A stretch of DNA of 64,000 nucleotides from Candidatus Dormiibacterota bacterium. GTDB taxonomy: Bacteria > Chloroflexota > Dormibacteria > CF-121. The notes beneath the pieces are model-generated. The model searched no databases. It was not told the DNA's origin and saw nothing but the letters and a program-made list of their open reading frames with translations. The position numbers and the translations under genes are program-made. The stretch covers positions 29,102-93,101 of the forward strand of contig DASWBA010000183.1 of the NCBI GenBank assembly GCA_036390825.1, written 5' to 3'. Every line of letters starts with the position of its first letter. Within the stretch, counting starts at the first letter, position 1. This document shows, piece by piece, positions 6,002 to 25,198 of the stretch.

Positions 6002-6910
6002 ATGCAACTCGACTACGAGCTCGCGATCGTGGGCCTGGTCGTGGGCTTTGTGGTCGGGATCACGGGAATGGGCGGCGGGGCCTTGATGACCCCGATTCTG
6101 GTGATCCTCTTCAAGGTGCAGCCGCTGGCGGCTGTCTCATCCGATCTCGTCGCATCGTTCTTCATGAAGCCGTTGGGTGCGGCCGTGCACTACCGCCGGG
6201 GGACCGTGCACCGCGAGCTGGTCCTGTGGTTGATGGTCGGCTCGGTGCCATCGGCCTTTGCCGGCGTCGTGCTGCTGCGACTCCTGGGCCACGGCCACGA
6301 GATCCAGCAGGTGGTCCAGACCGCCCTGGGGGTGGCGCTGATCCTGGCCGCGGCCGCCATCGTAGTCAAGGCGGTCCTGCAGCTTCGCACCCCTGTGCAT
6401 GGTGCCGGCGTCGATGCAGGCCACGCCGGCGAACCCGTGCGCCGGCTGCCGACGATCCTCGTCGGAGTCGTCGGCGGCCTGGTGGTGGGGATGACATCGG
6501 TCGGGTCGGGCAGCCTGATGATCGTGGCGCTGATGCTCCTGTACCCCCGCTTGACGGCTGCTCGACTGGTGGGGACGGACTTGACGCAGGCGATACCGCT
6601 CGTAGGTTCGGCTGCCATCGGACATGTCCTTTTCGGTGATTTCCGGCTGAGCCTCACAGTTTCGCTCCTCCTGGGCGCGATACCCGGGGTTTACCTCGGG
6701 GCGCGGGCTTCAGCCCAGGCGCCCTCAGGGATCGTCAAGCGTGCGATCGCGTTCGTTCTCCTGGCGTCCGGCCTGAAGCTGATCAACATCGGTACCGTCC
6801 AGCTTGGAGTCCTGCTGCTCGCGGTCGCGATCGCCGGAGAGCCGGTATGGGCCTTGATCCGCCGCACGAGCTCTCGGCCGGCCCCACCGGTGGTTGTCCC
6901 CGAAGCTTAG
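6002..6910 (+). CDS. TauE/SafE (DUF81) family sulfite/organosulfonate exporter-like membrane protein
   Basis: Polytopic membrane protein with a duplicated G-rich helix motif (ITGMGGGALMTPILV; MTSVGSGSLMIVAL). Confidence 0.75.
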   Translation: MQLDYELAIVGLVVGFVVGITGMGGGALMTPILVILFKVQPLAAVSSDLVASFFMKPLGAAVHYRRGTVHRELVLWLMVGSVPSAFAGVVLLRLLGHGHEIQQVVQTALGVALILAAAAIVVKAVLQLRTPVHGAGVDAGHAGEPVRRLPTILVGVVGGLVVGMTSVGSGSLMIVALMLLYPRLTAARLVGTDLTQAIPLVGSAAIGHVLFGDFRLSLTVSLLLGAIPGVYLGARASAQAPSGIVKRAIAFVLLASGLKLINIGTVQLGVLLLAVAIAGEPVWALIRRTSSRPAPPVVVPEA

Positions 6911-10279: not shown

Positions 10280-11451
10280 GCCCGAGCTCCGCGACCGGAC
10301 AGGGAGCGCGTGTAGCGACTCGAGAAGGCCTTGTCCAGCGCTCGCTGGAGCGCATCGACGACAGTCTCCGTTTCGGCTTCCGACATGTCGGCGTAGAGAG
10401 GAAGCAACATCGTCTCCCTGCTGGCGCGCTCCGTGATCGGCAGCGAGTACGCAGGGAACCGTTCTCGATAAAGCGGCTCGAGGTGGATAGCCATCACGCC
10501 TCGGCGGGTGGCGATACCCTGGCTCGCGAGTTCGGACATGACCACTGCGCGGACATCTTCGGATGGCAGCTGGACGCAGTACGACTGGTAGGTGTGACGA
10601 CAGCCCGCGGGTGCGTAAGGAAGGCGCAGTCGTTCGTCGCCTGCGAGCATCTCCGAATACCGGTCCGCCGCCGCACTCCGGGCGGCGAGGATTCGCTCCA
10701 GCTTGGCGATCTGCACGCATCCGATGGCGGCCTGGATGTCAGTCATCCGGTAGTTGAATCCCAACTCGTCGTAGCTTTCGAACCGGACCCGGTCCGACTC
10801 ATGCCTGTCGAGGTCTGAGATCGAGGCGCCGTGGGAGCGTAGCCGGCGCAGGCGGCCGGCGACCTCGCGATCGTTCGTGGTGATCATGCCGCCCTCGCCC
10901 GTGGTAATCGATTTGCGGGGGTGGAAGCTGAAGCAGGTGAGCGGGCTTCGGCTGCCGACTCGCTCGCTCTCGAAAGTGGCGCCCAGCGACGGGGCGGCGT
11001 CTTCGACGACGGCCAGGCGGTGTGCGCGAGCGAGATCACGCAGGTGGCGCAGGTCCGCGGCGAGCCCGATCTGATCGACCGGCATGATCGCCCTGGTGCG
11101 CTTGGAAATCGCCGTTTCCACTGCTCCGGCGTCAATGTTGTAAGTGCGGGGATCGATGTCGGCGAACACCGGCACCGCCCCGGCGTGCAGGATGGCGTTG
11201 GCGGTCGCGATGAAGCTGAAGGATGGGCAGATGACCTCATCGCCGGGCCTGACACCCGCTGCCAGCAATGCCAGATGCAGCGCGGTGGTGCAATTGCTCA
11301 CTGCGATTCCATGCTCTGCACCCACGTAGGCGCAGACCGCTTGCTCGAAATCGTCGACCCGCTTGCCCTGTGACAGCCAGCCCGACCGGATGACCGCCGC
11401 TGCCGCGGTCACCTCCTCCTCATCCAGCGACGGACGCGTGATGGGGATCAT
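10276..11451 (-). CDS. DegT/DnrJ/EryC1/StrS-family PLP sugar aminotransferase
   Basis: Full-length family architecture: MIPITRPSLDEEE, SNCTTALHLAL, FSFHPRKSITTGEGG (PLP lysine region), FNYRMTDIQAAIG. Confidence 0.9.
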   Translation of the reverse strand: MIPITRPSLDEEEVTAAAAVIRSGWLSQGKRVDDFEQAVCAYVGAEHGIAVSNCTTALHLALLAAGVRPGDEVICPSFSFIATANAILHAGAVPVFADIDPRTYNIDAGAVETAISKRTRAIMPVDQIGLAADLRHLRDLARAHRLAVVEDAAPSLGATFESERVGSRSPLTCFSFHPRKSITTGEGGMITTNDREVAGRLRRLRSHGASISDLDRHESDRVRFESYDELGFNYRMTDIQAAIGCVQIAKLERILAARSAAADRYSEMLAGDERLRLPYAPAGCRHTYQSYCVQLPSEDVRAVVMSELASQGIATRRGVMAIHLEPLYRERFPAYSLPITERASRETMLLPLYADMSEAETETVVDALQRALDKAFSSRYTRSLSGRGARA

Positions 11452-12440
11452 CAGACCGGCGCCGCCGCGGTGACAGTCGCATACCAGGCGACGAGCTCGC
11501 TCAGCCCATCCCTGAGCCCGACCTGCGCCTCGAACCCGATGAGGTTCCGGGCGTGCTCGGTGCTGGCACGGCGGCGCGTCACCCCGTTGACCCTGCGTGC
11601 TTCACCGCGTATCGCCTCGAGCTCCGGGTGCCCGGCCGCCTCACAGAGCAGCCTGGACAGCTCGCTGAGGCTCGTCTCGACGCCGGTGCCGACGTTGAGC
11701 GCACCGTCCGTGGCTCCGGACACGGCCGCCAGCAGGTTGGCCCGAGCCACGTCGCCCACGGAGATAAAGTCCATGGTCTGGCTTCCGTCGCCGAAGATCA
11801 CCGGAGGCTGGCCGTGTTGCAGCCGCTCCAGCCACCGGATCATGACTTCCGTGTAGACGCCGAAGGCGTCCATCCGCGGCCCGTACACATTAAAAGGACG
11901 GAGGGCCAGGTACCGCAGCCCGTGCATCTCGGCGTACGCCCGCGCCATCTGCTCGTTGGCGATCTTGGCCGCACCGTAGATCGTCCTGTTGTTGAAGGGG
12001 GCGGATTCCTCTATCGGCAGCCTGTCCGGTTCTCCGTAGACGGAGGCGCTCGACGCCAGGATCACCTTCTCAACCCCCTGCCGGACCGCAGCCTCGAGAA
12101 CGTTCTGGGTGCCTACGATCATCACTCTGATGGCTCGCACCGGGTCCTCGGCGCATTGCGTGATCCGGAGGGCGGCCTGGTGAAAGACGAGGTCGATCCC
12201 GGTGGTGACGCTCTCGACAAGAGGCGCATCGCAAATGTCGCCTTCGACCACCTCGAGTGAAGGGTGGGCTGCCAGCGACGCGAGGTTTTCCCTCCGGCCT
12301 CGGCTGAAGTCGTCCACGACCACCACTCGGGAGGCCCCGGCATCGATGAGATCCTCAACGATCCGGGAGCCCACGAATCCGGCGCCGCCCGTGACCAGCG
12401 CTCGCGCGCCCTTCAACCTGACATCCCGCGCCGTCGTCAT
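11451..12440 (-). CDS. NAD-dependent nucleotide-sugar epimerase/dehydratase (SDR)
   Basis: ALVTGGAGFVGSRIV Rossmann motif and YGAAK catalytic motif. One-nt start/stop junction with the aminotransferase. Confidence 0.85.
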   Translation of the reverse strand: MTTARDVRLKGARALVTGGAGFVGSRIVEDLIDAGASRVVVVDDFSRGRRENLASLAAHPSLEVVEGDICDAPLVESVTTGIDLVFHQAALRITQCAEDPVRAIRVMIVGTQNVLEAAVRQGVEKVILASSASVYGEPDRLPIEESAPFNNRTIYGAAKIANEQMARAYAEMHGLRYLALRPFNVYGPRMDAFGVYTEVMIRWLERLQHGQPPVIFGDGSQTMDFISVGDVARANLLAAVSGATDGALNVGTGVETSLSELSRLLCEAAGHPELEAIRGEARRVNGVTRRRASTEHARNLIGFEAQVGLRDGLSELVAWYATVTAAAPV

Positions 12441-13009
12441 GCCGTTATTTCTTCGCGGGGGGTCCAGGGGGCGATGGAGGACTCGCGCACCACGGCAGGT
12501 ACGCCCACCGCAGTCGCTCCTGCGGGAACGTCATGGATCACAACTGCATTGGCGCCGATCGAGCACCCCCTGCCCAGCCTGACGCCCCCGAGCACTCGGG
12601 CGCCAGCGCCGACGAAGACGCCGTCATCGATGATCGGGAACACCCATTCGTTGCGCATGCCGACGGTCACCGCATGCACGAACGTCACATTGGCGCCGAT
12701 CCGCTCCGCCATCAGGACGCTGCCGTACGGATGCGGCAGATAAAGCCCTGGACCAACGTGCATCCCGCAGCTGATCTCGACCCCGAAGAGGACCATGTTC
12801 AGCCGCTCCAACAGCGTCGGAAGGCCTCGCCAACCGCGCACCTGGCACCAGTGAGAGGCACGGTAGATCGCGGTCGCCCAGAGGGCAGGATGCCTCCAGA
12901 GGATCTGGACGACGTCCCGCGTTCGCAATCGCAGCAGACTCCGAGAATCATCCGTTGGCCGAATGCTTCGGTCCAACCACCGCTTCATGTCCTCAGAGAA
13001 GGCGCTCAC
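12437..13009 (-). CDS. Hexapeptide-repeat (LbH) acyl/acetyltransferase, serine-acetyltransferase-like
   Basis: LbH region IGANVTF..VTVG...DDGVFVGAGARVLGGVRLGRGCSIGANAVV. GTG at 13009 overlaps the upstream stop (alternative ATG at 12988). The track start at 13141 overlaps the neighbour. Confidence 0.7.
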   Translation of the reverse strand: MSAFSEDMKRWLDRSIRPTDDSRSLLRLRTRDVVQILWRHPALWATAIYRASHWCQVRGWRGLPTLLERLNMVLFGVEISCGMHVGPGLYLPHPYGSVLMAERIGANVTFVHAVTVGMRNEWVFPIIDDGVFVGAGARVLGGVRLGRGCSIGANAVVIHDVPAGATAVGVPAVVRESSIAPWTPREEITA

Positions 13010-14043
13010 GCGGCCGCCTCCGGGGCCTGATCGGCCGCCGTCAAGGCGAGCGCCTGAGCGCGACCGAGCTGCTCTGCCACTCCCCGCCAGTAAGCGGCCG
13101 TGAAGAGGGCTGAGCAGACCTTCACGGCAGCGGTCTCCCAACCAAAGCGGCAGCTCGCCACGGCCGCAACGTGCCCGGAGGCGGCGATTGGGCGCCAGAT
13201 TTCGGGTTGGCTCAGCACCGCCCGCGTCAGCAGCTTCGTGTAGGGGTGCCGGTACTGGAACTCTGGCCGGACCCAGTCGGGCAGATCGCCCCCGGTCCGG
13301 ATCCGCTCGAGCATCACGTCGGTCCGACCGTACTCATGCGCCGCCTTCAACCACGCCTCGAAAGAGCGCTCCGCAAGGTGCTCGCCCTCCGCCAGCGGAT
13401 TGAAAACGAAGCGAAGCCCCCGCTTGTGCAGCCGCCACGCCAGCTCGACGTCCTCACCCCGCCTGAATTGCGTATTGAAGCCTCCGACCGCCCTGACGTG
13501 GTCAAGCCTCACCGAGGCGTTGCCCGTGTAGAACTGTCTCGGCGTCGGCTCCCACTCGCCGGCCAGCATGGCGCGGTACTGCTGATTGAGCGTGGCCCAC
13601 TCCCAGGCCGTCCACGGCGACGGTCGCGCGGCGGTGGCGGCGAGAAGCGGACCGATGACGACCACATCCGGCACCCGGTGCGCTTCGGCGTGCTGCCGCA
13701 CAAGAGAAGGCGCCGGAAGGACGTCGTCATCTATGAACAGGACGAACGGCTCGGCCGCCTCGGCGAGACCCCGGTTGCGCGCTGCTGCGGGACCGCTCTG
13801 ACGCTGACTGAAAGCGCGCAGCCGGTATGGATACTGGCGACGACCCAGGGCATGCAGGATGTCGTCATTGCCGCCGTCGGCCACGACGATCGCCTCGAAC
13901 GAATCGAAAGGGTAGTCCTGCGTGGCGAGGGCGTCGAGCATACGCAGCAGCGATTGAGTGCGCCTATGGGTGGGCGTCACGATGCTGAAGCGAACGGGCT
14001 CAGCCACAGGTGTAAGTAAATGCAGTGCGGTGGGCGCCCACAA
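13006..14043 (-). CDS. Glycosyltransferase family 2
   Basis: FSIVTPTHRRTQSLLRMLDAL..QDYP, IVVADGGNDD and FIDDDV motifs. The start may be GTG at 14007. Confidence 0.8.
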   Translation of the reverse strand: MWAPTALHLLTPVAEPVRFSIVTPTHRRTQSLLRMLDALATQDYPFDSFEAIVVADGGNDDILHALGRRQYPYRLRAFSQRQSGPAAARNRGLAEAAEPFVLFIDDDVLPAPSLVRQHAEAHRVPDVVVIGPLLAATAARPSPWTAWEWATLNQQYRAMLAGEWEPTPRQFYTGNASVRLDHVRAVGGFNTQFRRGEDVELAWRLHKRGLRFVFNPLAEGEHLAERSFEAWLKAAHEYGRTDVMLERIRTGGDLPDWVRPEFQYRHPYTKLLTRAVLSQPEIWRPIAASGHVAAVASCRFGWETAAVKVCSALFTAAYWRGVAEQLGRAQALALTAADQAPEAAA

Positions 14044-14130: not shown

Positions 14131-15171
14131 TCATGCCGCTCGGCGGCCGGCTCGAGCTGCGTCAACCAGGTGGCGGTGAAGCGCCGCAGCGTACAGAGGC
14201 AGGTCGAACCGTTCCAGCACCGCCTCGCGGGCGTTGGCCCCCAGGCGGCGACGTTCAGCCGGATCGGCCAAGAGCCGCTGCAGCTCCGATCTCATGGCCG
14301 GGGGGTCGTACGGAGGCACGAGCACCCCTGTCTCGCCGTCGATCACGATGTCGCGCTGGCCCTCGGTCGCGGTGACAACCACCGGCTTGGCCATCGCCAT
14401 CGCCTCGAGAATCGTGGTCACGCCCGCCTGGAAGTCGCTGGGGATCAAAGGCACGACCACGACCTCCGCCTGGGCGTACAGCTCTCGCAGGGCGTGTGGG
14501 CTGCGCATGCCGACAGAAATGTTGGCGGGCATCAGCTTGGGAAGGCGGCACGGTGCGGACGGGGAAAAAAGGCTCCCGGCCGCGATCACCGTGTGCACAG
14601 GCAGGTCCTCGACCGCGGCTGCCAGCGTCGCGTAGTCGCGATGCTCACGGCCTGCGGAAACGATGAGTCGGTGCTGCTGCACTGGCTGAGGACGCCAGAA
14701 CCGAGCGTCGGCGTAGTACGGGACGAACGCGGCGGAGCCCTGGGTGAATCCAAGCGCTTCGATTGCGATCTTCAGCTGCGCGCGAGAATGAACGAGGACG
14801 CGCGTGATCCCCATATGGCGCAGCCAACGGAGCATCAGGGGCTTCGACCGCGACGTGAGATGGTGGCCAAGCACCACGTGGGGCCGCGCCGGGCCGATGG
14901 CCTCGAGCGCGATGCCGAGGGGGATGCCGACGTGCTCGCCGTCCGAGAAGATCGCGTCCGCCTCGGCGGCGGCCCGAAGTCCAGCGGCGGCCTGCCGCAA
15001 CGAACGCCGGGCCGACCGGCCCGGCTCGATCTTCAGTCGCGACCAATCGAGCAGCCGCACCCCATAATCGCGCTCGAGCGCGATGAATTCAGGCACCGGC
15101 CTGGTGCCGGCCTCGATTTCGATCCGCAGGTCGCGATCGGCGCTGGCCGATACCAGCATTACGGTCCTCAT
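14131..15171 (-). CDS. Glycosyltransferase family 4 (GT-B)
   Basis: C-terminal motif VVVPLIPSDFQAGVTTILEAMAMAKPVVVT..GETG. ATG at 15171 overlaps the stop of the GH44 gene (ATGA). The track ORF to 15720 is an artefactual extension. Confidence 0.8.
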   Translation of the reverse strand: MRTVMLVSASADRDLRIEIEAGTRPVPEFIALERDYGVRLLDWSRLKIEPGRSARRSLRQAAAGLRAAAEADAIFSDGEHVGIPLGIALEAIGPARPHVVLGHHLTSRSKPLMLRWLRHMGITRVLVHSRAQLKIAIEALGFTQGSAAFVPYYADARFWRPQPVQQHRLIVSAGREHRDYATLAAAVEDLPVHTVIAAGSLFSPSAPCRLPKLMPANISVGMRSPHALRELYAQAEVVVVPLIPSDFQAGVTTILEAMAMAKPVVVTATEGQRDIVIDGETGVLVPPYDPPAMRSELQRLLADPAERRRLGANAREAVLERFDLPLYAAALHRHLVDAARAGRRAA

Positions 15172-16907
15172 GCTTTTGGCTTGGTCAGCCTGACCAGGTG
15201 TACCGACAGCGGCTCGAGGCTCAGCGTGCCGGCGGTCGAAGCCAGGGCCTCCGGAGTGATGTCCGAGGACCCTGGGTGGATCACGAACTGTTGTGCTTTG
15301 TAGGCCGCAAAGCCGGACAGCTGAAGCTGAACGGTTGCGGTCTGCGTGAGGCTTTCGTTGGCCAGGACGAGGTCGATCTCGCCGGTGTCCGAGTGGCGCG
15401 ATGCAAACGCCGCCACCTGGGGGGACCCTGAGGTCACTGGTAGTGACAGGTCCCCGAACCTGGCTCCGTGGCCATCGTAGTTGCGGTAGAGGCGAAAGGC
15501 CGCCGCGGCCGGGGTGTTTGGTGGCGGGTTCGTCCAGTAGTTGGCCATGTAAACGCCCTCGCGGCCAAAAACGCCGAGCACCTCCGCGAGCGCCACCGCT
15601 CCGCTGGCGTCGTATTCCCCGCCGAAGTTGTACTCCGAGATCGCGATTCCGGTTCCTGGATACGACCTGGCGATCCATGCTTTCAGCGTCGGTATCAGGT
15701 CGACGGGCTGGGAAATCCACGACTCATCGACGTAGTTCGGGTCGTACAGGCTGTGAACCGAGCGTATGCGCCGAGCCTGAGTGGCCGGATCGGAGGCGTG
15801 GGCCGAGACTACGTTTGGAGCTTGCGGATAGTAGTGCACGTCCAGGTAGTCGAGTGTTCGCTTGCCGAGCGACTGGTCGTGCTGCTTGAGCTGCAGCAGC
15901 CACCACTCGAGAAACGGTACGTTGCCGTGGGCCTGGCGATCGGCGTGCGTCGCGAAGTTGTCAGTGCCACGGTCCAGGGCCGAGAACTGGTAGCCGGTCC
16001 AGCCTGAGACGACCGGTCCGAGAATCTTCGCCGATGGGTCGACCGCTCTGACCGCATCCGCATAGCTGGTGAACTCTTTGACCATGGCGTCATAGCTGGT
16101 TTCGACCGGGCACACGTCGGTATGGGTGATCCACCAGAGGTCTGGTTCGTTGTCCATCTCGAAGTAGGTGACGCCCTTCGGGCCGGTGCCGAACTTGCTC
16201 GTCAGGTAGTGCACCCAGGCGTCCTGGTAGACAACCGGAGCCGACGGGTCGGGTGCTGTCGCCATCGGCCCGTTGCTGGTCGGCAGCGAAGGCACGCTAG
16301 TCCGGGCGCGATTGGCCGATGGATCGTAGCCCGCGATTGCCTGGGAGCCTGGAGCGGCAGGCGCGCCACCCTGGTTGGGCACGCCGATCGCCATGGTGTT
16401 GTTGTCGTTGTTCTTCGCCACCCAGCCGATGGTCGGAATGGTCATCACCGGCTGCGCGCCCGCGGCCAACGACTGGGAGATGAACGTGTCGGCGGCATTC
16501 CCCGACCCGCCCTGGTTGCGAAACTCCCAATCGCGTCCGGCGTTGTCTGCGTTTCCGTTGTCCCAGTTGAATGTGCTGACCGCATTTCCGCCCCAGCGGT
16601 TGGCGGTCGCCCCGAGCTCTTTGAGGTACGCAGGATCGGCGAAGGCGACGCCGTAGATAAGCGGGCTGATCGGCGACGTGGAACCCTGGGTGTCGATTCG
16701 AACCGCCACCCCGTTCAGGGGCGCTGCAGGAGTTGGCTGCGTAGCTCCGGCATCGGACTGAGAGACCAGACTCCGCAGATGCGCCTCTACCCGCGAGACA
16801 AACCCCGGATGCGCGACCAGCAGGTATGTACCGAAGGCCGAGGCCGTGATCGCCCCACCGGCGAACGCCGCGACCAGCGGTATGAAGCGGCCGCGCAAGA
16901 ACGTCAC
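15168..16907 (-). CDS. Glycoside hydrolase family 44-like glycanase with N-terminal membrane anchor
   Basis: ANRWGGNAVSTFNWDNGNADNAGRDWEFRN, YFEMDNEPDLWWITHTDV and IAISEYNFGG resemble the GH44 signature and catalytic Glu regions. N-terminal TM FIPLVAAFAGGAITASAFGTYLLV. GTG at 16907 overlaps the upstream stop. Confidence 0.7.
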   Translation of the reverse strand: MTFLRGRFIPLVAAFAGGAITASAFGTYLLVAHPGFVSRVEAHLRSLVSQSDAGATQPTPAAPLNGVAVRIDTQGSTSPISPLIYGVAFADPAYLKELGATANRWGGNAVSTFNWDNGNADNAGRDWEFRNQGGSGNAADTFISQSLAAGAQPVMTIPTIGWVAKNNDNNTMAIGVPNQGGAPAAPGSQAIAGYDPSANRARTSVPSLPTSNGPMATAPDPSAPVVYQDAWVHYLTSKFGTGPKGVTYFEMDNEPDLWWITHTDVCPVETSYDAMVKEFTSYADAVRAVDPSAKILGPVVSGWTGYQFSALDRGTDNFATHADRQAHGNVPFLEWWLLQLKQHDQSLGKRTLDYLDVHYYPQAPNVVSAHASDPATQARRIRSVHSLYDPNYVDESWISQPVDLIPTLKAWIARSYPGTGIAISEYNFGGEYDASGAVALAEVLGVFGREGVYMANYWTNPPPNTPAAAAFRLYRNYDGHGARFGDLSLPVTSGSPQVAAFASRHSDTGEIDLVLANESLTQTATVQLQLSGFAAYKAQQFVIHPGSSDITPEALASTAGTLSLEPLSVHLVRLTKPKA

Positions 16908-18169
16908 GCCGTGTTCTCTCCCGACCGCACTCGCGGGGCAAACCTCTTGTTGAGCGCCGCATACGCTCGTTTCCGAAACCTGTCCCACTTCGCGGCCAGG
17001 GTTTCGTGGACGAGTCCATACATCGCGACGGCGAACGGCAGCGGATCATCGAGTCCCCAGGTCGCACCTTCGCGGACACCGCGAAAGGAGCGCAGCCAGG
17101 CTGTCAGCGTGAGGCCGTCGAGCCGGCGATAGTGCGTCGAAGCGACCAGGTCCGCGGATTCATTGATCCAACGCCGACCGTCGCTGGGAGCGATGGCCGG
17201 TACAGGCCGGCCGGTCAGGTCGAGGTACATCGCTCGGGCGACGTCCATCCCGTGCTTGTCGACGAACATTCGGAAAGCGCCGCCGAGCCGGGGGTTTATG
17301 TCCAGCACCTTGTACTGGCCGTCCCGACTGTCGAACCTGTACCCGATGTCTACGATGCCGCGATAGCCGACGGCACGCATGAAGTCGCATGTCGCCTCGA
17401 TGACAGTGCTGTTCTGGCGCAGCTCGCCGAGGCTTGCGATGCCCATCTTGGCGGGATGCTGCCGGATCTTGACGCCGGTGAAAGCCGCGAGGCAGCGAGA
17501 CTGAGAGTCGAAGTACCCGTTGAAGATCCAGACGTCACTGTCGGTTCCCGGTATGTACTCCTGGAACATGACGTTCGGGGCCCCCGGCGACTCCTCCATC
17601 CACCTGTATGAATCGACCAGCTGTTGGGCGTTGTTGGCCACGGCCTTTTCGAGCACGTCGGGCCGGCTGCGGACCGGCTTCAGCATCACGGGGTACTGCA
17701 GGCTCGAGGACGCGGACAAAGCCTCATCGCGGCTCGCCGGAAAGACGATGCGCGGGGTCGGCAGACCGTGGGTCGTCGCCAGCCTGTAGAGGCCATCCTT
17801 GGCGGCGAGCTCTTCCACGAGGTGCAGGGGCACGACTGGAAACCGGAACCAGCGGGCGAGCTCAGACGAATGGCTGGCCACAAAAACCGACCACTCGTCG
17901 GAGCCCGGGATCAGAATCGTTCCTCCGCCCAACCGCCGCCCTGCTGCCACGAGGTCGCCCAGCGTCCGCGCTTCGTCCGGCCACGGCCTGCCATCGAGTC
18001 CTACCGACAGGGTGCCCGCGCAGTACCGTGACGAGCTTGCGGCGCTGGATCCATTGTGCGTGAGTCCGTAGACGCCGACACCCAGCCTTCCCAAAGACCT
18101 CATCACGCCCAGCGGACCCACGTATCGCGGCGGCCCCATGACCAGGACCGCCGGCCTGTCTGGGGACAC
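16904..18169 (-). CDS. ATP-grasp superfamily carboxylate-amine/thiol ligase (COG3919-like)
   Basis: AVLVMGPPRYVGPLGVMRSLGRLGVGVYGL pre-ATP-grasp region, YPVMLKPVRS, VMFQEYIPG, YKVLDINPRLGG. Confidence 0.75.
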   Translation of the reverse strand: MSPDRPAVLVMGPPRYVGPLGVMRSLGRLGVGVYGLTHNGSSAASSSRYCAGTLSVGLDGRPWPDEARTLGDLVAAGRRLGGGTILIPGSDEWSVFVASHSSELARWFRFPVVPLHLVEELAAKDGLYRLATTHGLPTPRIVFPASRDEALSASSSLQYPVMLKPVRSRPDVLEKAVANNAQQLVDSYRWMEESPGAPNVMFQEYIPGTDSDVWIFNGYFDSQSRCLAAFTGVKIRQHPAKMGIASLGELRQNSTVIEATCDFMRAVGYRGIVDIGYRFDSRDGQYKVLDINPRLGGAFRMFVDKHGMDVARAMYLDLTGRPVPAIAPSDGRRWINESADLVASTHYRRLDGLTLTAWLRSFRGVREGATWGLDDPLPFAVAMYGLVHETLAAKWDRFRKRAYAALNKRFAPRVRSGENTA

Positions 18170-18174
18170 CTCGC

Positions 18175-18912
18175 TCAGGCTTCGGCGAGCAGGCGCTGTG
18201 CCCCGGGGAGCATCAGGCTCACCTGCTGGCCGTTGAAGACTGCCGAGGCATCGATGTCGTCGACGCGCTTAAGGACGAACTCGAGATCGTCGTGTTGACC
18301 CGTGTCGCGCAGGAAATCGGCGCTCGGGCTGCGGCGCATCGTGCCCACGCTGACGCCGCGCCATTCGCTGAGCTCGGCCACGGTCCGGTCGTCCTCGGGC
18401 GTGTAACCCTGGCTGTTGAGCATCTCAGCGATCCGTGCGCACGCGTACTGGTCTTCGGGCCGCGCCTTTCCGTGGGTGCCGGCGCCGATCAACGCCACAC
18501 GGCGGTGCGTACCGATGAGCTGGGCGGCGGTCGCGATCATGTTGCGCAGGCAGGCGACGTAGATCGAGCTGGCCCCCCGGGCCTCGGACAGCAGTTGGGT
18601 TCCGGCCGACGTGACCAGCACGATCGGGCGGCAATTGGGCAGCCGCTCGATCGCCGCAGGCGAGTTGTTGAGGTCGAAGCCGTCGGGCTTGATGCCTGCC
18701 TGCTCGCCGGCCAGCAGTGGATCATGAAGCCGGGACGCGACCACGATCGCCTCGGCGACGGTTGACACCGGATAGATCGGATGGCCATGGGCAAGGGCGG
18801 TCACGATCACCGTGGTGGCCCGAAACACGTCGACCGCGACCACGGCGTGCGTGTCGCGGTACTTGCTGACCGATTCGGGCGTGGCGTCGATGACGAATGA
18901 CCGCGGGGTCAT
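18175..18912 (-). CDS. comB: 2-phosphosulfolactate phosphatase
   Basis: ComB family signatures VAVDVFRATTVIVTAL, LLAGEQAGIKPDGFDLNNSP, LVTSAGTQ. Confidence 0.8.
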   Translation of the reverse strand: MTPRSFVIDATPESVSKYRDTHAVVAVDVFRATTVIVTALAHGHPIYPVSTVAEAIVVASRLHDPLLAGEQAGIKPDGFDLNNSPAAIERLPNCRPIVLVTSAGTQLLSEARGASSIYVACLRNMIATAAQLIGTHRRVALIGAGTHGKARPEDQYACARIAEMLNSQGYTPEDDRTVAELSEWRGVSVGTMRRSPSADFLRDTGQHDDLEFVLKRVDDIDASAVFNGQQVSLMLPGAQRLLAEA

Positions 18913-19748
18913 CCGCCTGGCTCAGGTAAAGGCAGCGGCGCCAGCAAAGTTCCGTAGGCGTCTGAATGGAGACCACGCCGGTAAATCTCGACTCGAAGCA
19001 GCTCCTCGAGCCGGACGTTGCTCAGGTGAATGTGGGGTCCGAAGTGGTTGAGGAAGTCGAACTGGCTCCGCTTGTTGGGCGCCTCGAAGATCGTGCTCTC
19101 CATGCCGAAAGCCTTCGCGAAAGCCTCAGCCGCATCGAAATTGAGGCGGCCGGAGTCGTCGAACAGCCCGACCTGCTGGGCGCTTTCGCGGGCCTCGACG
19201 ACAATCGCAACCGCGCCCGCGTCGAGCCATTCGTGTCCAATCGCTATGAGCTCCCCGACCACACGCTCGGTGAACGCTCCGCCGTGCTTGTCGCCGAGCT
19301 CCATCTGGACCGAGAGCCCAAAGCGCCGGGCGAGCGCCACGATCTGTGTCGGCGTGTGCTTCATCTCTGTGAAGCCGTGCCCCGCTTCGATGCGATCGAT
19401 GCCGAGGCTCGCGCAAAGCTCGAAATAATCTTCCAGGCGCCCGCGGTCCTTGGCGATCTCGAACGGGCCGCCGCCTGTGACGAGGATCACGTTTCGGCGC
19501 TTCGCCGCAGCGATCTTGGCTCGAGTTGCCGCCTCGTCCGCGATCAGCCAGCAGCACATCGAGAGCTTCAACAGGCTGATGAGGTGCCCGCTCTGCTCGA
19601 TGTGGCTGACCACGGTCGCGACGTCATAGCCGGGATCGAACGGGCTGGTGAGCGGCGGCAGGTCCAGGACCCCTAACGAACGGATAAAGTCGCGAGTCGT
19701 CTTCCTGGCCGACGAGCCGTTGACGGTGGTCACGTTGAGCATTTCCAT
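18909..19748 (-). CDS. comA: (2R)-phospho-3-sulfolactate synthase
   Basis: ComA-like TIM-barrel motifs ILVTGGGPFEIA, LGIDRIEAGHGFTEM, SVQMELGDKH. The stop overlaps the comB start (ATGA). The N-terminal half is divergent. Confidence 0.7.
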   Translation of the reverse strand: MEMLNVTTVNGSSARKTTRDFIRSLGVLDLPPLTSPFDPGYDVATVVSHIEQSGHLISLLKLSMCCWLIADEAATRAKIAAAKRRNVILVTGGGPFEIAKDRGRLEDYFELCASLGIDRIEAGHGFTEMKHTPTQIVALARRFGLSVQMELGDKHGGAFTERVVGELIAIGHEWLDAGAVAIVVEARESAQQVGLFDDSGRLNFDAAEAFAKAFGMESTIFEAPNKRSQFDFLNHFGPHIHLSNVRLEELLRVEIYRRGLHSDAYGTLLAPLPLPEPGG

Positions 19749-21653: not shown

Positions 21654-22763
21654 TCACGCGATTCGCGACGCCCTCATGGGCGCGGCTGCGACTGTGATCA
21701 TGAGCTCGATGATGCGGCGGTTGTTGGCGTCCGCGTCATGCTCGTGCTCGGCGATGCGACGGCTCGCCAGACCCATCCGGCGTCGCAAGCTGCTCGAGAG
21801 CACGAGCGATTCGAGCGCACGGCTTAAGTCGCCAGGATCGCCGGCTGGAACGAGCCAGCCGTTGATGCCGTTTCGAACCATCTCCGGAATCGCTCCTGTC
21901 CGCGACGCCACGATCGGAAGGCCGCACGCGAGTCCCTCTGCCACTGCTTGCGGGAAACAATCCCCTCGCGAAGGCAGCACGAATATGTCTGCCTCGCGAT
22001 ACAGGTTCACTATCTCGGGCGACTGCGGGCTGAGGCCTCGATGCACGCGGCAGACCACGTCCGGAGGCGGATCCACAGGCGAACCCGTGACCACGTCCAG
22101 CTCTGCGAGCGGCCCGAACCGCCTCATGGCCTGGAGCAGGTCTGCACCGCCCTTACGCTCGAAGTCTCCACCGACGAACAGGATCCGGACCGCTTTTCGA
22201 TTCCCGGCCCGGTCTAGTGGACGGAAGAGCGTCACGTCAACGCCGGGATGAATGACCGAAATCTTGTCCTGTGGCACGCCATAGTCGGCCACGAGCGAGT
22301 CAGCCGCCCACTGGCACCAGGAAACGAGCGCCGCCGCGCGCCGGAAGACAGACCGGTTCAACTGCAACTTGACCGCCTCGACCGCGGGTCGGTTGCGCGA
22401 GTGCCCATACGAGCGGCCCTGTGAGTCGAAGTTCAACGGGGTGGCGTCGAGGGACACCACGGTGGGAATCCTCTGCATGATCGACGCCGCGAGATGAGCC
22501 GCAACCTGGGTATGGATGAAAACGGCGTCGACGGGGCCTCTGCGCAACCGGCGAGCCAGAGCCGACCTGGCTTGCCGGCTGGCATCGAAGGTCCACGTCC
22601 GGAGACCGGGAATTCGCGCGGCCACACCGGGCCGGCGATGGTACTCGATGGGGATCACGGTCGATCGGACGGACCCTGCGTGCTGGTCGAGGGCGCGCCG
22701 GATGTTGCGGGCGTGAGCGACGTGGCCCAGAGTCTGCTCGAGAACGAAAACGAATTCACGCAA
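21654..22763 (-). CDS. Glycosyltransferase family 4 (GT-B)
   Basis: ILFVGGDFERKGGADLL and FVLPSRGDCFPQAVAEGLACGLPIVASRTGAIPEMV..GINGWL. Confidence 0.85.
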   Translation of the reverse strand: MREFVFVLEQTLGHVAHARNIRRALDQHAGSVRSTVIPIEYHRRPGVAARIPGLRTWTFDASRQARSALARRLRRGPVDAVFIHTQVAAHLAASIMQRIPTVVSLDATPLNFDSQGRSYGHSRNRPAVEAVKLQLNRSVFRRAAALVSWCQWAADSLVADYGVPQDKISVIHPGVDVTLFRPLDRAGNRKAVRILFVGGDFERKGGADLLQAMRRFGPLAELDVVTGSPVDPPPDVVCRVHRGLSPQSPEIVNLYREADIFVLPSRGDCFPQAVAEGLACGLPIVASRTGAIPEMVRNGINGWLVPAGDPGDLSRALESLVLSSSLRRRMGLASRRIAEHEHDADANNRRIIELMITVAAAPMRASRIA

Positions 22764-24303
22764 GGCTGCGCTTCTCGGCGGCGGGCTCAGGAAACAGGGC
22801 CGGTAGGACGTTCAACACCCCGAATATCGCGCCGATGAAAATCATGTTTCTGTAGCTTTCGAGCTGCAGGTCCGCGTACGCGACCAAGAGTTCACACACG
22901 ATGGCGCCTCCCACCAGCGCCACCAGGGTGAGCACGAATCGGTCGCGCTGCACAGAAAGCGCACGGCACACCTCGAGCAGCGCGGTCCCGAACAGCGCCC
23001 AGAAAGCGATGCTGCCCACCAGCCCCATGCGCACCCCGACCCAGAGCAGGGTGTTGTGTGGGATGTAGTTCCAGAGCGGATAGATGGTCGAGATGTCCGC
23101 CTGCGCCAGGACGGTCAAGAACGGCATGCCGAAGCCCATGCCGATCAACTTGTTGGTCTTAAAACTCAGCTGTAGGTTGATGTTTTCGGCCTGCCGATAG
23201 ATGTCCGACAGGTAGTCGCGCAGGCTGGGGTCGAACTGCGAACGTACGGGCCGCACCAACTGCCCGATCAGACCGTTCTGTACGTTCCAGAAGGCGATCA
23301 GAAAGGCCGTGACGATGACAGCGGCGATGAGCGCTAGCAGAATCACCCGCCGCCGATTGACCCCGTTGAACCGGATTGCCAGCAGAACGATGACGATCGC
23401 CCCGCCGGCGAGCGCAAGGATGCCTGCACGCCGTTCGTTGGCCAGCAGCGCCCCCGCCGCGATGGCGGTGGCGATCACCAGGAGGGTGAGCGCTCGTGTC
23501 CTGCCGGTCCAGATCAGCGCCGCCAGGGCGGCAAGTGGAAGCAGCGCCAGAAAGTAGGAGTCTTCATGGCCGAGAACGGTTTCGTGAGCGCCGAGGTTGT
23601 GGTTGAGCACGATGAAATAGCGGACGTCGCCGATGACACCTTTGAAGGCGATGGCGACCGCGGCGATCAGGGCCAGGCGTTCGAGGTCCTGGCGAGAGCG
23701 GATGACGAGCGAGGCAATCACGAAGCCTATGAAGCCGTACACCTGGGGGCGCAGCTCCCACAGCGACTTGTTGAAATCGCCTCCGTTGAGGAGACCGTGG
23801 ACCTCGCCCATCAGGACTGCCATCAGGAACAGCAGGTAGGGGGGGAAGAGGCGACCCTTGAAGAGCCGAGCGCGGATCATCGGTCCCGATCGAACCAGCG
23901 CGGCCACGATGGTGACGCCCATCAGCAGCTCGGCCGGCGTGACCGATACACCAATGCCAGCACTGTTGTTGAGGCCGTAGAAAAACGGGACCTCGTCGGT
24001 GAACGAGTCCGGGAAACGCAGGATGAAGACCTCGATGGTGATCGCAGCGCCGACCAGGATTTGCAGGCCGCGCAATGGCGCGGCGAAGATCCAAGGGGTG
24101 AGCACTGCAATTACAACCAGCAAGCCGATCGCGGGCACGGGGCGGGTTGCCTGGCCCAGTGTGACCAGCACAACGATCGCTGTCGCGACTGCGAGCAATG
24201 ATCGAATTCGGACTCGCGAAGGGAGGTTTGAGGGGACCTGTGAGTGGGCTCGCGAAGGGACGACTGCCGGCGCGCGCTGACTCAGTGGGAGTGCGGCGGC
24301 CAT
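22756..24303 (-). CDS. O-antigen ligase/polymerase-like (Wzy_C family) polytopic membrane protein
   Basis: About 12 predicted TM helices with a large loop and a HNTLLWVGVRMGLVGSIAFWALFG-type C-terminal segment. Sits between the GT and the Wzz/kinase genes. Confidence 0.6.
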   Translation of the reverse strand: MAAALPLSQRAPAVVPSRAHSQVPSNLPSRVRIRSLLAVATAIVVLVTLGQATRPVPAIGLLVVIAVLTPWIFAAPLRGLQILVGAAITIEVFILRFPDSFTDEVPFFYGLNNSAGIGVSVTPAELLMGVTIVAALVRSGPMIRARLFKGRLFPPYLLFLMAVLMGEVHGLLNGGDFNKSLWELRPQVYGFIGFVIASLVIRSRQDLERLALIAAVAIAFKGVIGDVRYFIVLNHNLGAHETVLGHEDSYFLALLPLAALAALIWTGRTRALTLLVIATAIAAGALLANERRAGILALAGGAIVIVLLAIRFNGVNRRRVILLALIAAVIVTAFLIAFWNVQNGLIGQLVRPVRSQFDPSLRDYLSDIYRQAENINLQLSFKTNKLIGMGFGMPFLTVLAQADISTIYPLWNYIPHNTLLWVGVRMGLVGSIAFWALFGTALLEVCRALSVQRDRFVLTLVALVGGAIVCELLVAYADLQLESYRNMIFIGAIFGVLNVLPALFPEPAAEKRSLA

Positions 24304-24451: not shown

Positions 24452-25198
24452 TCAGAGAATCCGGCGCAGCCAGCCGGGCGTTTTCGGCTCGTAGTCGTTG
24501 AGGACGACACCCGCAACGCGCTCGCGCCCGAGCAGGAACATCACCTTCTCGAGGTCATCTGTCATCGTTCGTCCATACCGAGCGATCACCAGAATCTTGT
24601 CGGCGAGCCGCGACGCCAGCGAGCTGTACGCGATGTTCAGCATCGGTGGCAGGTCGATGATGATGTTCGGAAAGCTGGCCTTGAACTTTTCGATGAGGTC
24701 ACTGCTGGTGAGGCGGAAGATCAGCCGCGCCGGATCGGATCCAGCGTCGCCCGCGGGCAGTACGAATGCGTTCTCCAGCGGCGCGGCCTGGATCAACCGG
24801 AGCCGATTCGACCCCTCGAGCCACGCGCACAGCCCGGGCCCGCGGTTGAGACCCAGCACCTGGTCGAAGCCTACGGAGCTGGCCAGATCGCTTTCGACCA
24901 GGAGCGTCGGTTCTCCCGTGTCGGCCGCCATCGCGACCGCGATTCCGATCGCGATCGACGTCTTGCCCTCGCCATGGACCGGACTCGTGATGCCAAGGAC
25001 GCGCTGCTGATGTTCGCCCCGTTCCTCGAACGGCACTGAGAGGTACGCCTGCCGGCAGCGGTCGATGAACCACGGGGGCATATTGATGAGCTTGGTTCGC
25101 TCGCGGCCGATGGCGGCGAAACCCGGTGGCGCCGGCTTTGGTTTGAGGGCAGCCGAGATCGCCTCTTCGATGTCCTGGTCGGAGATTGCCTCAGCCAT
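24452..25198 (-). CDS. BY-kinase-like P-loop ATPase (CpsD/Wzc C-terminal domain type) lacking a C-terminal tyrosine cluster
   Basis: Walker A SPVHGEGKTSIAIGIA, A' LLVESDL, B IIIDLPP. The C-terminus VVLNDYEPKTPGWLRRIL has a single Tyr. Confidence 0.75.
   Translation of the reverse strand: MAEAISDQDIEEAISAALKPKPAPPGFAAIGRERTKLINMPPWFIDRCRQAYLSVPFEERGEHQQRVLGITSPVHGEGKTSIAIGIAVAMAADTGEPTLLVESDLASSVGFDQVLGLNRGPGLCAWLEGSNRLRLIQAAPLENAFVLPAGDAGSDPARLIFRLTSSDLIEKFKASFPNIIIDLPPMLNIAYSSLASRLADKILVIARYGRTMTDDLEKVMFLLGRERVAGVVLNDYEPKTPGWLRRIL

Follow-up and report, generated by a model that had tools for sequence, protein, structure and literature searches.

Enzyme pairs of the ComA and ComB families are known from coenzyme M biosynthesis in methanogens and from Bacillus subtilis, where a pair of the yitCD type yields the sulfolactate of the spore as an end product. 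Surface glycans or their precursors are decorated by several amidoligases of the ATP-grasp type, such as the D-aspartate ligase of E. faecium (an enzyme type in which a small acid is activated and then acylates an amine on a UDP-linked precursor), the glucuronamide ligase of Campylobacter jejuni HS:2 and TupA-like enzymes. To our knowledge, a sulfonated hydroxy acid, the presumed acid of the ligase described below, is a substrate of none of these amidoligases. The EPS system of Myxococcus xanthus, for which we know of no ComA, ComB or ATP-grasp genes, and the nickel-pincer LarA racemases, for which we are aware of no report of sulfolactate as a substrate, are further points of comparison.

The window analysed in this work (a stretch of 64,000 nucleotides from a Candidatus Dormiibacterota bacterium) carries an operon of ten minus-strand genes, running from 19748 to 9326, with comA, comB and an ATP-grasp ligase at its head:

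18909..19748, minus strand: comA-like phosphosulfolactate synthase, 279 aa, operon gene 1 (PF02679, 151 bits, threshold 25)
18175..18912, minus strand: comB-like 2-phosphosulfolactate phosphatase, 245 aa (PF04029, 143 bits, threshold 26)
16904..18169, minus strand: ATP-grasp carboxylate ligase, 421 aa, of an uncharacterised comA-comB-linked clade (AF2 fold)
15168..16907, minus strand: membrane-anchored GH44 glycoside hydrolase, M. xanthus EpsB-like (PF12891, 195 bits)
14131..15171, minus strand: GT4 glycosyltransferase, EpsE-like in its C-terminal half (PF00534, 67 bits)
13006..14043, minus strand: GT2 glycosyltransferase, EpsD-like (PF00535, 68 bits)
12437..12988, minus strand: hexapeptide-repeat acyltransferase, serine O-acetyltransferase/EpsC-like (PF00132)
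11451..12440, minus strand: SDR sugar-nucleotide epimerase/4,6-dehydratase (PF01370, 198 bits)
10276..11451, minus strand: DegT/PseC-type sugar aminotransferase (PF01041, 388 bits)
9326..10279, minus strand: second GT2 glycosyltransferase, last operon gene (PF00535, 85 bits)

The genes at the head are translationally coupled: the comA stop and the comB start share an ATGA (18912-18909), the comB TGA ends at 18175 and is followed, after five bases (GCGAG), by the GTG start of the ligase at 18169, and the ligase TGA (16906-16904) overlaps the GH44 GTG (16907-16905) in a GTGA. This GTG opens the GH44 frame immediately ahead of a hydrophobic N-terminal segment (MTFLRGRFIPLVAAFAGGAITASAFGTYLLVA). 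Further couplings were read from the sequence at GH44/GT4 (ATGA), acyltransferase/SDR (ATGA), SDR/DegT (TGATG) and DegT/GT2 (ATGA), and it is these overlaps down the row that make the ten genes one compact operon. Two ORFs were corrected to internal ATG starts (GT4 at 15171 and the second GT2 at 10279), the acyltransferase probably starts at the ATG at 12988 (with GAGGA upstream), and the ligase as deposited (P0001, 399 aa) probably lacks its first 22 codons, since conserved residues lie upstream of that start. The head ORFs, their junctions and a one-strand row of glycan genes from GH44 to DegT had already been described in a sequence-only reading of this DNA; all are present, the row is borne out by family matches, and the operon extends further, to the second GT2.

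With coenzyme M biosynthesis the locus shares both enzyme families, their order and the charged residues of ComA. It differs in that comC, comDE and bacterial xcb-type genes were found neither among the window genes scanned nor among the conserved neighbours examined in other genomes, in that an ATP-grasp ligase and polysaccharide genes come next, and in that ComA and ComB both score under the NCBIfam equivalog cut-offs, so that the same substrate use is not guaranteed. The likeness to the B. subtilis yitCD type consists of a bacterial ComA-ComB pair, a predicted sulfolactate that is not a coenzyme M intermediate, and sulfate-activation genes nearby; the window has, nevertheless, no sporulation context, and the presence of a dedicated ligase suggests that sulfolactate would be conjugated, rather than stored as in Bacillus. 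The amidoligases resemble the cassette in having an ATP-grasp gene inside a cell-envelope glycan locus and an amide formed via an acyl phosphate (for the cassette, a prediction), whereas the best solved relatives of the cassette ligase are generic ATP-grasp folds only. Finally, the best NCBIfam models for the GH44, GT4, GT2 (13006..14043) and serine-acetyltransferase-like proteins are M. xanthus EpsB, EpsE, EpsD and EpsC, all four below cut-off (NF041873 EpsB, 371 bits against 1250; NF041875 EpsD, 297 against 370; NF041874 EpsC, 121 against 150), and the window has a set of type IV pilus genes close by (26-35 kb). The SDR protein (best models LegB-type and dTDP-glucose 4,6-dehydratases) and the DegT protein (TIGR03588 PseC, 343 bits against 423) also remain below the cut-offs.

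The family assignments of ComA and ComB, proposed from the sequence alone, passed the Pfam thresholds widely. ComA aligns over its full length with the Methanocaldococcus jannaschii enzyme (1qwg, 100 bits, 28% identity) and is more distant from the Bacillus-type homologue 1u83 (64 bits), while its score against the archaeal equivalog TIGR03849 is 142, under the cut-off of 280. In an alignment that includes the M. jannaschii enzyme, cassette ComA proteins from other phyla share 55-71% identity with that of the window, and 40 columns are invariant between the cassette proteins and the archaeal one, including D38, K61, E97, E121, E150, K154, E185, R187, E188, E222, K226, R257, R258 and D263. ComB matches the solved structures of its family (1vr0, 2yyv and 2z0j) with 61-67 bits.

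For the ligase the Pfam evidence is weak (CPSase_L_D2, 24.8 bits for a threshold of 19.8; ATPgrasp_Ter, 25.9 bits where 29.1 is required), and the assignment made earlier was confirmed by structure prediction: the AF2 model (pLDDT 91) has the ATP-grasp fold, and Foldseek matches it to biotin carboxylase, PurK and L-amino-acid ligases with a probability of 1.0. The fold search gave no clue to the substrate (top TM-scores 0.55-0.59, at 12-19% identity), no specific family model was matched in Pfam and NCBIfam, and the ligase has no close characterised relative; the JGI annotation of the family is D-aspartate ligase. Conserved residues include K164, Q203/E204 and D290-x-N292-x-R294. The cassette-linked ligases form a single clade, to which additional paralogues from the same loci are deep outgroups, and the clade has four invariant arginines (R278, R282, R300 and R332) that are mostly other residues in the paralogues; an anionic substrate would suit them.

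The neighbourhood of the trio in other genomes, whose survey the sequence-only reading had proposed, nearly always consists of polysaccharide genes. With the ligase as query, ComA and ComB were found nearby in 67 of 81 loci, from more than ten phyla, with carriers in Dormibacterota/Chloroflexota, Nitrospirota, Acidobacteriota, Bacteroidota, Ignavibacteria, Desulfobacterota, Proteobacteria, Zixibacteria, Bathyarchaeota and Methanomicrobiales; in 59 of these 67, all three genes share a strand and run comA-comB-ligase. With ComA as query, among metagenome loci with sufficient downstream sequence, ComB follows directly in 40/40 and the ligase is present in 34/40. The six ComA-ComB loci with no ligase nearby, of which three (L094, L150 and L156) retain a methyltransferase beside ComA, indicate that the pair can be encoded without an adjacent ligase. 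All close homologues found come from uncultured organisms, both bacteria and archaea. Because the trio recurs in dozens of unrelated genomes, its linkage is not due to chance: it is a conserved cassette, almost always within polysaccharide loci, and this makes the functional tie of ComA and ComB to the ligase much stronger than could be seen from the window sequence by itself. This conservation and context, like the gene identities and the operon structure, are matters of observation.

Family scans identified Bac_transf, GT2, GT4, DegT and NodB-type deacetylases as recurrent neighbours, to which inspection of representative sequences by eye added Wzx, Wzz, tyrosine-kinase-like, NusG-like, Wzy-like and FemAB-like proteins; no coenzyme M genes occur among the frequent neighbour clusters examined. 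Two additional partners stand out by their frequency: a SAM methyltransferase, which some loci have as a fusion with the ligase, and an enzyme of the LarA type, which is absent from the window and present in 18 of the 56 long loci. Among solved structures, the LarA-type enzyme is closest to the malate racemase Mar2 (PDB 6d6z, E = 2.7e-34), and malate is the carboxylate analogue of sulfolactate, so we count this partner as support for a free 2-hydroxy acid intermediate. In the cassette LarA, the D-x-x-R-P-T-P and G-T-H motifs are intact, as is the GGxK lysine, although several members have the second catalytic histidine at a shifted position or another residue in its place.

Outside the operon, further genes of the window include:

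531..1862, plus strand: GFO/IDH/MocA oxidoreductase, WbpB/GnnA-like by family (PF01408, 92 bits), of the same locus, in the block on the opposite strand
1961..2665, plus strand: NodB-type polysaccharide deacetylase (PF01522, 80.5 bits)
2662..3609, plus strand: sulfotransferase (PF13469, PF00685)
3617..5362, plus strand: bifunctional ATP sulfurylase/APS kinase (PF01747 and PF01583)
5387..5914, plus strand: Rrf2 regulator (PF02082, 112 bits)
6002..6910, plus strand: TauE/SafE-family membrane protein (PF01925, 142 bits)
21654..22763, minus strand: GT4 glycosyltransferase (PF13692/PF00534)
22756..24303, minus strand: Wzy_C-type polymerase/ligase (PF04932, 34 bits)
24452..25198, minus strand: tyrosine-kinase-like P-loop protein (56 bits to neighbour cluster C27)

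No sulfite source is encoded within the operon; the Rrf2/TauE pair (5387..6910) may, judging from the family name, be tied to sulfite or sulfonate traffic. In the other genomes, a PAPS synthase homologue accompanies the cassette in one of 67 loci and a sulfotransferase in none of the 67, while the GFO/IDH/MocA family occurs near it in related loci (L001, L003, L017 and L166). The P-loop protein is called tyrosine-kinase-like after C27, a cluster assigned by eye and without a family scan, and its sole Pfam match is a weak, sub-threshold one to the CbiA/MinD-type P-loop. Queries with representatives from related loci found neither a Wzx flippase nor a Bac_transf initiating transferase in the window. 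The earlier statement that no coenzyme M genes lie nearby holds: comC, comD and comE-type genes are missing among the window ORFs scanned against Pfam, a scan that spanned the window apart from ORFs at ~35.2-37.4, 42-43.2, 47.7-49.2 and 56.7-58.4 kb.

On balance, we lean towards reading the trio as a self-contained unit for making sulfolactate and for attaching it in the course of a polysaccharide pathway. Every chemical step of this proposal, and above all the acceptor, we infer from gene families and context. ComA would join sulfite and phosphoenolpyruvate into (2R)-phospho-3-sulfolactate, from which ComB would remove the phosphate to give 3-sulfolactate; the ATP-grasp enzyme would then phosphorylate the sulfolactate carboxylate and pass the sulfolactyl group on to a nucleophile borne by a sugar precursor or by the lipid-linked repeat unit. 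The likeliest nucleophile would be a free sugar amine, supplied by the DegT aminotransferase branch or by a NodB-type deacetylase (the window carries both amine makers), with an N-(3-sulfolactyl) amino sugar as the predicted product. Building, polymerising and trimming a polysaccharide that bears a permanently charged sulfonate would fall to the glycosyltransferases, Wzy-type polymerase and GH44 hydrolase encoded in this locus. In other lineages, inversion of the sulfolactate stereocentre is probably the task of the LarA-type enzyme, and the attached group is probably methylated, perhaps at its 2-hydroxyl, by the SAM methyltransferase.

The amino sugar of the DegT branch had been proposed earlier as a possible acceptor, and the loci support this only in part: an amine-generating enzyme (DegT or NodB-type deacetylase) occurs in 31 of the 56 long loci, but the DegT link is not general, since no more than 13 of 67 cassette loci have a DegT homologue within ~10 kb, and deacetylases are found in 23/56. 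A UDP-sugar dehydrogenase is present in 7/56, and 22/56 have neither an amine maker nor a uronate maker in the stretch fetched. The ratio of amine makers to UDP-sugar dehydrogenases (31 against 7) favours, and does not prove, an amide to an amino sugar as the linkage. The two amine makers of the window and the D-aspartate ligase label given to the ligase family speak for an amine as well. The opposite polarity, in which the ligase activates the carboxylate of a glycan uronic acid or peptide side chain and the sulfolactate 2-hydroxyl forms a (depsi) ester, would be in keeping with D-Ala-D-lactate ligases, which use a hydroxy acid as nucleophile, and with the Campylobacter capsule amidoligase, which activates glucuronate; the ATP-grasp fold alone does not tell which substrate bears the carboxylate, and a LarA-type partner would set the stereochemistry of the nucleophilic carbinol. 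Three of the seven loci with a UDP-sugar dehydrogenase lack an amine maker, and in an Acidobacteriota-type subset (L066, L074, L082 and L084) the dehydrogenase stands beside the cassette. We consider this polarity unlikely, given how much rarer uronate-forming than amine-forming enzymes are near the cassette, that the scan of window genes turned up no UDP-sugar dehydrogenase and that, in general, esters of uronates are labile and only a minority of ATP-grasp enzymes form esters. Attachment to an amino acid, peptide or small amine, capping a short peptide-like side chain that further ligases of the locus would assemble on the polysaccharide, deserves about as little weight: many long loci do contain a second ATP-grasp family (26/56) or, by eye from representatives, FemAB-like (21/56), AMP-dependent ligase (12/56) or asparagine-synthase-like proteins (8/56), yet such additional ligases are absent from the operon studied here (the sole asparagine synthase of the window, at 43323-45221, is 24 kb off), and loci of the Dormibacterota type (L001, L003 and L007) hold, besides the cassette, only a methyltransferase, DegT and glycosyltransferases.

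The remaining alternatives seem to us less probable still. A soluble product (stored sulfolactate, a sulfolactyl conjugate used as an osmolyte or a cofactor precursor), with the polysaccharide location incidental, would recall the free sulfolactate of Bacillus ComA-ComB pairs and the loci with methyltransferase, ComA and ComB and no ligase nearby; moreover, a Streptomyces NRPS/PKS cluster holds a 52%-identical ComA, which places the family in small-molecule pathways also. Such a product is hard to reconcile with polysaccharide genes flanking the cassette across more than ten phyla, with its translational coupling to GH44 and glycosyltransferases in the window and with frequent neighbours devoid of coenzyme M genes. 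It is similarly improbable that the ComA of this clade uses a nucleophile other than sulfite on phosphoenolpyruvate, or another enol-phosphate, and that the ligase handles another 3-substituted lactate. The distance to the archaeal equivalog and to M. jannaschii ComA, together with clade-specific motifs (e.g. SPFDPGYD and KISMACW) at which the archaeal enzyme differs, would allow it; on the other side stand the retention of all conserved charged residues common with the archaeal enzyme, the greater nearness to that enzyme than to 1u83, the ComB phosphatase that is always next, and the sulfate-activation and TauE genes beside the cassette in the window.

The attachment of sulfolactate to an amino sugar within a polysaccharide pathway, which we prefer, would be novel: in agreement with the earlier reading, no description of sulfolactate in a glycan was found in the searchable literature. 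As judged from gene content, the cassette is probably the signature of a new and widespread glycan modification, and its place in polysaccharide operons suggests that microbial polysaccharides bear a sulfonate decoration not described before.

The comA-like, comB-like and ATP-grasp frames were confirmed by ORF calls at the minus-strand positions assigned to them in the sequence-only reading. Read base by base, an ATGA is common to the comA stop and the comB start, and the ATP-grasp gene opens with a GTG after a 5-base gap behind the comB stop. The GTG opening the GH44 frame overlaps the ATP-grasp TGA, just ahead of a hydrophobic anchor, and ATGA/TGATG coupling is also found at the GH44-GT4, acyltransferase-SDR, SDR-DegT and DegT-last GT2 junctions. 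Given these couplings, the ten genes from 19748 to 9326 form one compact operon with the three-gene cassette (comA, comB and the ligase gene) at its head. A promoter/terminator scan of the operon region gave no signal inside it above shuffled background, and an Rfam scan of the window (G+C about 65%) returned zero matches. The deposited ligase protein (P0001, 399 aa), which belongs to a Candidatus Dormibacteraeota metagenome-assembled genome, begins 22 codons 3' of the GTG at 18169 (18104-18169, minus strand); residues P13, P14, G18, L20 and G21, which lie upstream of that start, are kept in homologues, and for this reason the longer form is favoured and probably correct.

Genes of the operon and of the remainder of the window
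18909-19748, minus: comA
18175-18912, minus: comB
16904-18169, minus: ATP-grasp ligase
12437-16907, minus: EpsB/E/D/C-like block (GH44, GT4, GT2, hexapeptide acyltransferase)
After the acyltransferase to the operon end, minus: 4,6-dehydratase-like SDR, PseC/ArnB-like DegT aminotransferase and second GT2 (family models)
Upstream, opposite strand to the operon: GFO/IDH/MocA oxidoreductase (family scan)
Upstream, opposite strand to the operon: NodB-type polysaccharide deacetylase (family scan)
Upstream, opposite strand to the operon: methyltransferase and GT4 (family scan)
2662-6910, plus: sulfotransferase, fused ATP sulfurylase/APS kinase, Rrf2 regulator and TauE/SafE membrane protein (family scan)
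19934-21574, plus: TNPP-repeat protein of 546 aa, divergent from comA, proline/threonine-repeat, secreted
Beyond comA: GT4, Wzy_C protein (34 bits) and tyrosine-kinase-like protein (family scan or similarity)
26361-35158: type IV pilus set (two T2SSE-family ATPases, PilC-like T2SSF protein, weak PilM match, pilin)
43323-47821, minus: asparagine synthase (glutamine-hydrolysing), GT2 and PMT_2/ArnT-like GT-C transferase
52829-54028, minus: DUF222 and HNH endonuclease gene, between methionine synthase and molybdopterin oxidoreductase

Both sulfolactate-synthesis proteins pass their Pfam thresholds, as their proposed family membership demanded: ComA matches PF02679 with 151.3 bits (threshold 25.2; positions 13-243 of the 243 in the profile) and ComB matches PF04029 with 142.7 bits (threshold 26.4; positions 3-213 of 226). 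The NCBIfam equivalog cut-offs are not reached, either by ComA against TIGR03849 arch_ComA (142.3 bits, cut-off 280) or by ComB against its best model, NF002057 (104 bits, cut-off 235), and the two belong to their families without being close orthologues of their archaeal counterparts. ComB matches solved structures of its family with 61-67 bits, while the archaeal reference for ComA, the M. jannaschii enzyme (1qwg), aligns over the full length with 100 bits and the Bacillus-type 1u83 is less close (64 bits). When the window ComA is aligned with its M. jannaschii counterpart and with eleven ComAs from cassettes of other phyla, 40 columns are invariant, conserved acidic and basic residues included. 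Among the residues shared with M. jannaschii are D38, K61, E97, E121, E150, K154, E185, R187, E188 and S189, as well as E222, K226, Q229, N244, E249, E254, R257, R258 and D263, a list that denotes conservation in the alignment and not catalytic roles taken from the structure paper. The cassette ComA is unusually conserved: members from different phyla share 49-71% of their residues with the window ComA in this alignment and 52-87% in a tblastn survey.

The cassette is widespread. A profile of ligase homologues retrieved 262 relatives from one-genome-per-species GTDB contigs, and the loci of the best 80 of these, together with one non-redundant locus from direct look-ups, gave the 81 loci of the ligase-side survey. 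The best 80 come from Chloroflexota/Dormibacterota, Actinomycetes, Nitrospirota, Acidobacteriota, Bacteroidota, Ignavibacteria, Desulfobacterota, Beta- and Gammaproteobacteria, Zixibacteria, Krumholzibacteria, Bathyarchaeota and Methanomicrobiales. ComA and ComB both lie near the ligase in 67 of the 81 loci (some of those without them being truncated contigs), and 59 of these 67 keep the one-strand order comA-comB-ligase. Starting from the other partner, a scan of JGI metagenomes gave more than 553 relatives of ComA; among the best 40 of their loci, each with at least 2.1 kb downstream, ComB comes next in all 40 and the ligase is present in 34. Related protein clusters number in the thousands. 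A chance juxtaposition of the three genes was rejected on these grounds, given that the trio is seen again in phylum after phylum and is recovered from either partner.

The ligase is not always encoded beside the pair, because six of the 40 best ComA loci carry ComA-ComB with no ligase close by; a methyltransferase is retained in three of the six. Loci of this ligase-less type are L094 (7082-10774), L103, L150, L154 and L156, and in L094, L150 and L156 the methyltransferase stands directly upstream of ComA; an ORF downstream in L094 was assigned by eye as polysaccharide-deacetylase-like. As for cultured carriers, the plasmid collection yielded no ligase of the cassette type (identities did not exceed 31%), and a protein search with a Nitrospira ligase as query returned uncultured sources only. 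The sole close ComA of the plasmid collection belongs to Streptomyces sp. NBC_00211 (plasmid locus L165, 345027-369800); it is 52% identical to the window ComA, has no ComB, and sits in an NRPS/PKS-type cluster with SbnB, a cysteine-synthase-like protein, an ACP, ketosynthases, MbtH and an adenylation protein. The ATP-grasp protein of this cluster is unrelated to the cassette ligase (24% identity), and the gene content gives a hint that a cultured strain may make a sulfonated natural product.

The third member of the cassette was assigned mainly through its predicted structure, its Pfam match being marginal (CPSase_L_D2, 24.8 bits against a threshold of 19.8). The AF2 model (pLDDT 91.2, pTM 0.88) has the three-domain ATP-grasp fold and gave 572 PDB matches at E <= 0.001, the best 50 of which are all ATP-grasp enzymes; biotin carboxylase, PurK and L-amino-acid ligases are matched at probability 1.0, with TM-scores of 0.55-0.59 and 12-19% identity. 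The ATP-binding lysine K164, the pair Q203/E204 and D290-I-N292-P-R294, which conforms to the E/D-x-N-x-R motif, are invariant across 25 homologues, and K164, Q203 and R294 are also present in the ligase paralogues. Sequence and fold searches found no characterised close relative (generic ATP-grasp enzymes only, cyanophycin synthetase among them), and no solved or curated family close to the ligase was matched. From its sequence and model, the window protein is an ATP-grasp carboxylate ligase whose specificity is not readable from homology, since the matches are generic. JGI labels the family as D-aspartate ligase; among the curated models compared, none for that enzyme matched the window ligase, and the neighbours of the cassette ligase are polysaccharide genes rather than murein genes. 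In a neighbour-joining tree the cassette-linked ligases form one clade, with the extra ATP-grasp paralogues of the same loci as deep outgroups. Among the invariant residues peculiar to this clade are R278, R282, R300 and R332, three of which are near the catalytic D-x-N-x-R loop in sequence, and we infer that these arginines would suit an anionic substrate.

The surroundings of the cassette were surveyed in the 81 loci by clustering the ORFs up to 9 kb away from the ligase; the top eight real neighbour clusters were annotated with Pfam and the others were read by eye from representative sequences. The context is consistently that of polysaccharide biosynthesis. Recurrent neighbours are (mostly by eye) Bac_transf initiating transferases, Wzx flippases, Wzz/GumC-like, tyrosine-kinase-like and NusG-like antiterminator proteins, and also GT2, GT4, Wzy-like, NodB deacetylase, FemAB-like, asparagine-synthase-like, AMP-ligase and acyltransferase-3 proteins. 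No coenzyme M genes occur among the frequent neighbour clusters examined. In the window itself, comC, comDE and the bacterial xcbCDE are absent from the ORFs scanned (all but a few). Although the first two predicted steps of the cassette resemble the start of coenzyme M synthesis, as they do sulfolactate synthesis in Bacillus spores, membership of the coenzyme M pathway was rejected because its downstream genes turned up neither among the scanned window ORFs nor among the frequent neighbours.

Two further partners bear on the chemistry. A SAM methyltransferase (neighbour clusters C6 and C11) is found in 33 of the 56 cassette loci that span 15 kb or more, usually directly ahead of comA or directly after the ligase. 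In a metagenomic locus (L166, 4760-12127) the order is ComA-ComB-ligase-methyltransferase-LarA-[ligase::methyltransferase], the last gene encoding a protein of 708 aa in which a ligase paralogue and a methyltransferase are fused (P0069); this fusion, a single case, argues that the methyltransferase is functionally tied to the ligase step. A LarA-family protein, with the malate racemase Mar2 as nearest solved relative (E = 2.7e-34), occurs in 18 of the 56 long loci; it keeps the cofactor-binding and first-histidine motifs, and some members have the second histidine at a shifted position or another residue in its place. Sulfolactate corresponds to malate with a sulfonate in place of one carboxylate, and the LarA enzymes characterised so far use free 2-hydroxy acids as substrates, which makes this Mar2-like partner the best indirect evidence for free sulfolactate as a pathway intermediate.

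Which group would receive the sulfolactyl moiety is where the sequence-only reading needs amending. It had proposed that the ATP-grasp enzyme ligates sulfolactate onto the amino sugar made by the DegT branch. This fits the window and three related loci (L001, L003 and L007) in which DegT lies one or two genes 3' of the ligase; a DegT homologue is nearby, however, in only 13 of the 67 cassette loci, and the DegT branch was rejected as the universal source of the acceptor. Within the 56 long loci, an amine-generating enzyme (DegT or a NodB deacetylase) is present in 31 as against a UDP-sugar dehydrogenase in 7, while 22 have neither within the fetched stretch. On account of this ratio, an amide to a sugar amine would be the likeliest outcome, a preference that we hold tentatively and rate somewhat short of an even chance. 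Attachment of sulfolactate as an ester through its own hydroxyl is a live alternative to which we give a low probability, and so, to the same degree, is a sulfolactyl group capping a peptide side chain. With the sugar amide still preferred, the broader proposal finds support in outline and gains considerable strength from the conservation of the cassette, the particular acceptor (the DegT amino sugar) being unproven. Judging by gene content and conservation, we lean, if only slightly, towards a cassette that produces sulfolactate and conjugates it as part of a polysaccharide pathway. The fuller version, in which it would place a C-bonded sulfonate as N- or O-(3-sulfolactyl) groups, often methylated and stereo-inverted, on the exopolysaccharides of many uncultured lineages, appears to us evenly balanced; the lineages meant are dominant uncultured ones of soil, sediment and groundwater, including Dormibacterota, Acidobacteriota, Nitrospirota, Bacteroidota and Bathyarchaeia.

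Other genes of the window add local features. The sulfotransferase, Rrf2 and TauE genes lie near no other of the 67 cassette loci, and a PAPS synthase homologue lies near one; sulfotransferase, PAPS synthase and TauE were rejected as cassette members accordingly. These genes probably serve either O-sulfation, as a second sulfur decoration independent of the first, or sulfur supply in this organism, and their position adjoining the operon suggests that the window polymer may also be O-sulfated. The TNPP-repeat protein, which has no Pfam match, starts with a signal-like segment, continues with about 13 TNPP repeats in tandem and has a hydrophobic anchor at its C-terminus; a surface location or glycosylation is possible, and a long antisense ORF over the repeat is probably spurious. 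Queries representing related loci, which carry Bac_transf (Pfam) and proteins read by eye as Wzx, Wzz and Wzy, found no homologue of Bac_transf or Wzx in the window. Of the parts of a Wzx/Wzy-dependent polysaccharide locus (initiating phosphoglycosyl transferase, flippase, polymerase, chain-length regulator), the window shows the Wzy_C protein and the tyrosine-kinase-like protein. The asparagine synthase group constitutes a second small glycan-related set, 24 kb from the operon, and in other phyla, too, cassette loci repeatedly include asparagine-synthase-like genes. The DUF222 and HNH endonuclease gene is probably a mobile or selfish element.

The four genes after the cassette have as best NCBIfam models EpsB (GH44; 371 bits, cut-off 1250), EpsE (GT4; 68, cut-off 400), EpsD (GT2; 297, cut-off 370) and EpsC (serine-acetyltransferase-like hexapeptide protein; 121, cut-off 150), all below cut-off and all models of what we take to be Myxococcus xanthus EPS proteins. 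The block lies about 10 kb from the type IV pilus set, and this proximity echoes the link between EPS and pili that is known in Myxococcus. Envelope glycans or their precursors are decorated by ATP-grasp amidoligases such as D-aspartate ligase, the Campylobacter capsule amidoligase and TupA-like enzymes; the predicted ligase step of the cassette would work in the same way, with membership demonstrated in none of these families. Searches of full texts that paired sulfolactate with ATP-grasp, glycan or polysaccharide, or looked for "sulfolactyl" and variants of it, gave nothing relevant within their coverage, which excludes the ATP-grasp survey of Iyer et al. 2009; the sulfolactate papers retrieved were catabolic, concerned coenzyme M or were unrelated. 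Our results support, in outline, a combination of known enzyme families and a known glycan-acylation logic into a modification not yet described.

Charged groups govern the binding of microbial polysaccharides to water, metals, minerals, phages and host receptors, and the known anionic groups of glycans are carboxylates, phosphates and sulfate esters, with sulfosugars or taurine as rare cases. The sulfolactyl group would be a hydrolysis-stable strong acid built from the central metabolites PEP and sulfite and, if our reading is true, would represent a previously unknown class of glycan modification. Lineages of soil, sediment and groundwater, with a surface chemistry not yet described, account for most carriers of the cassette. 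Part of the soil organosulfonate pool could then arise from this cassette, an unrecognised biosynthetic source distinct from sulfate esters and sulfoquinovose, and the biosynthetic counterpart to the widespread bacterial pathways of sulfolactate degradation. Additionally, the proposal offers a candidate function for a large ATP-grasp family now annotated as "hypothetical" or "D-aspartate ligase", and a candidate substrate, sulfolactate, for a clade of LarA-family racemases.
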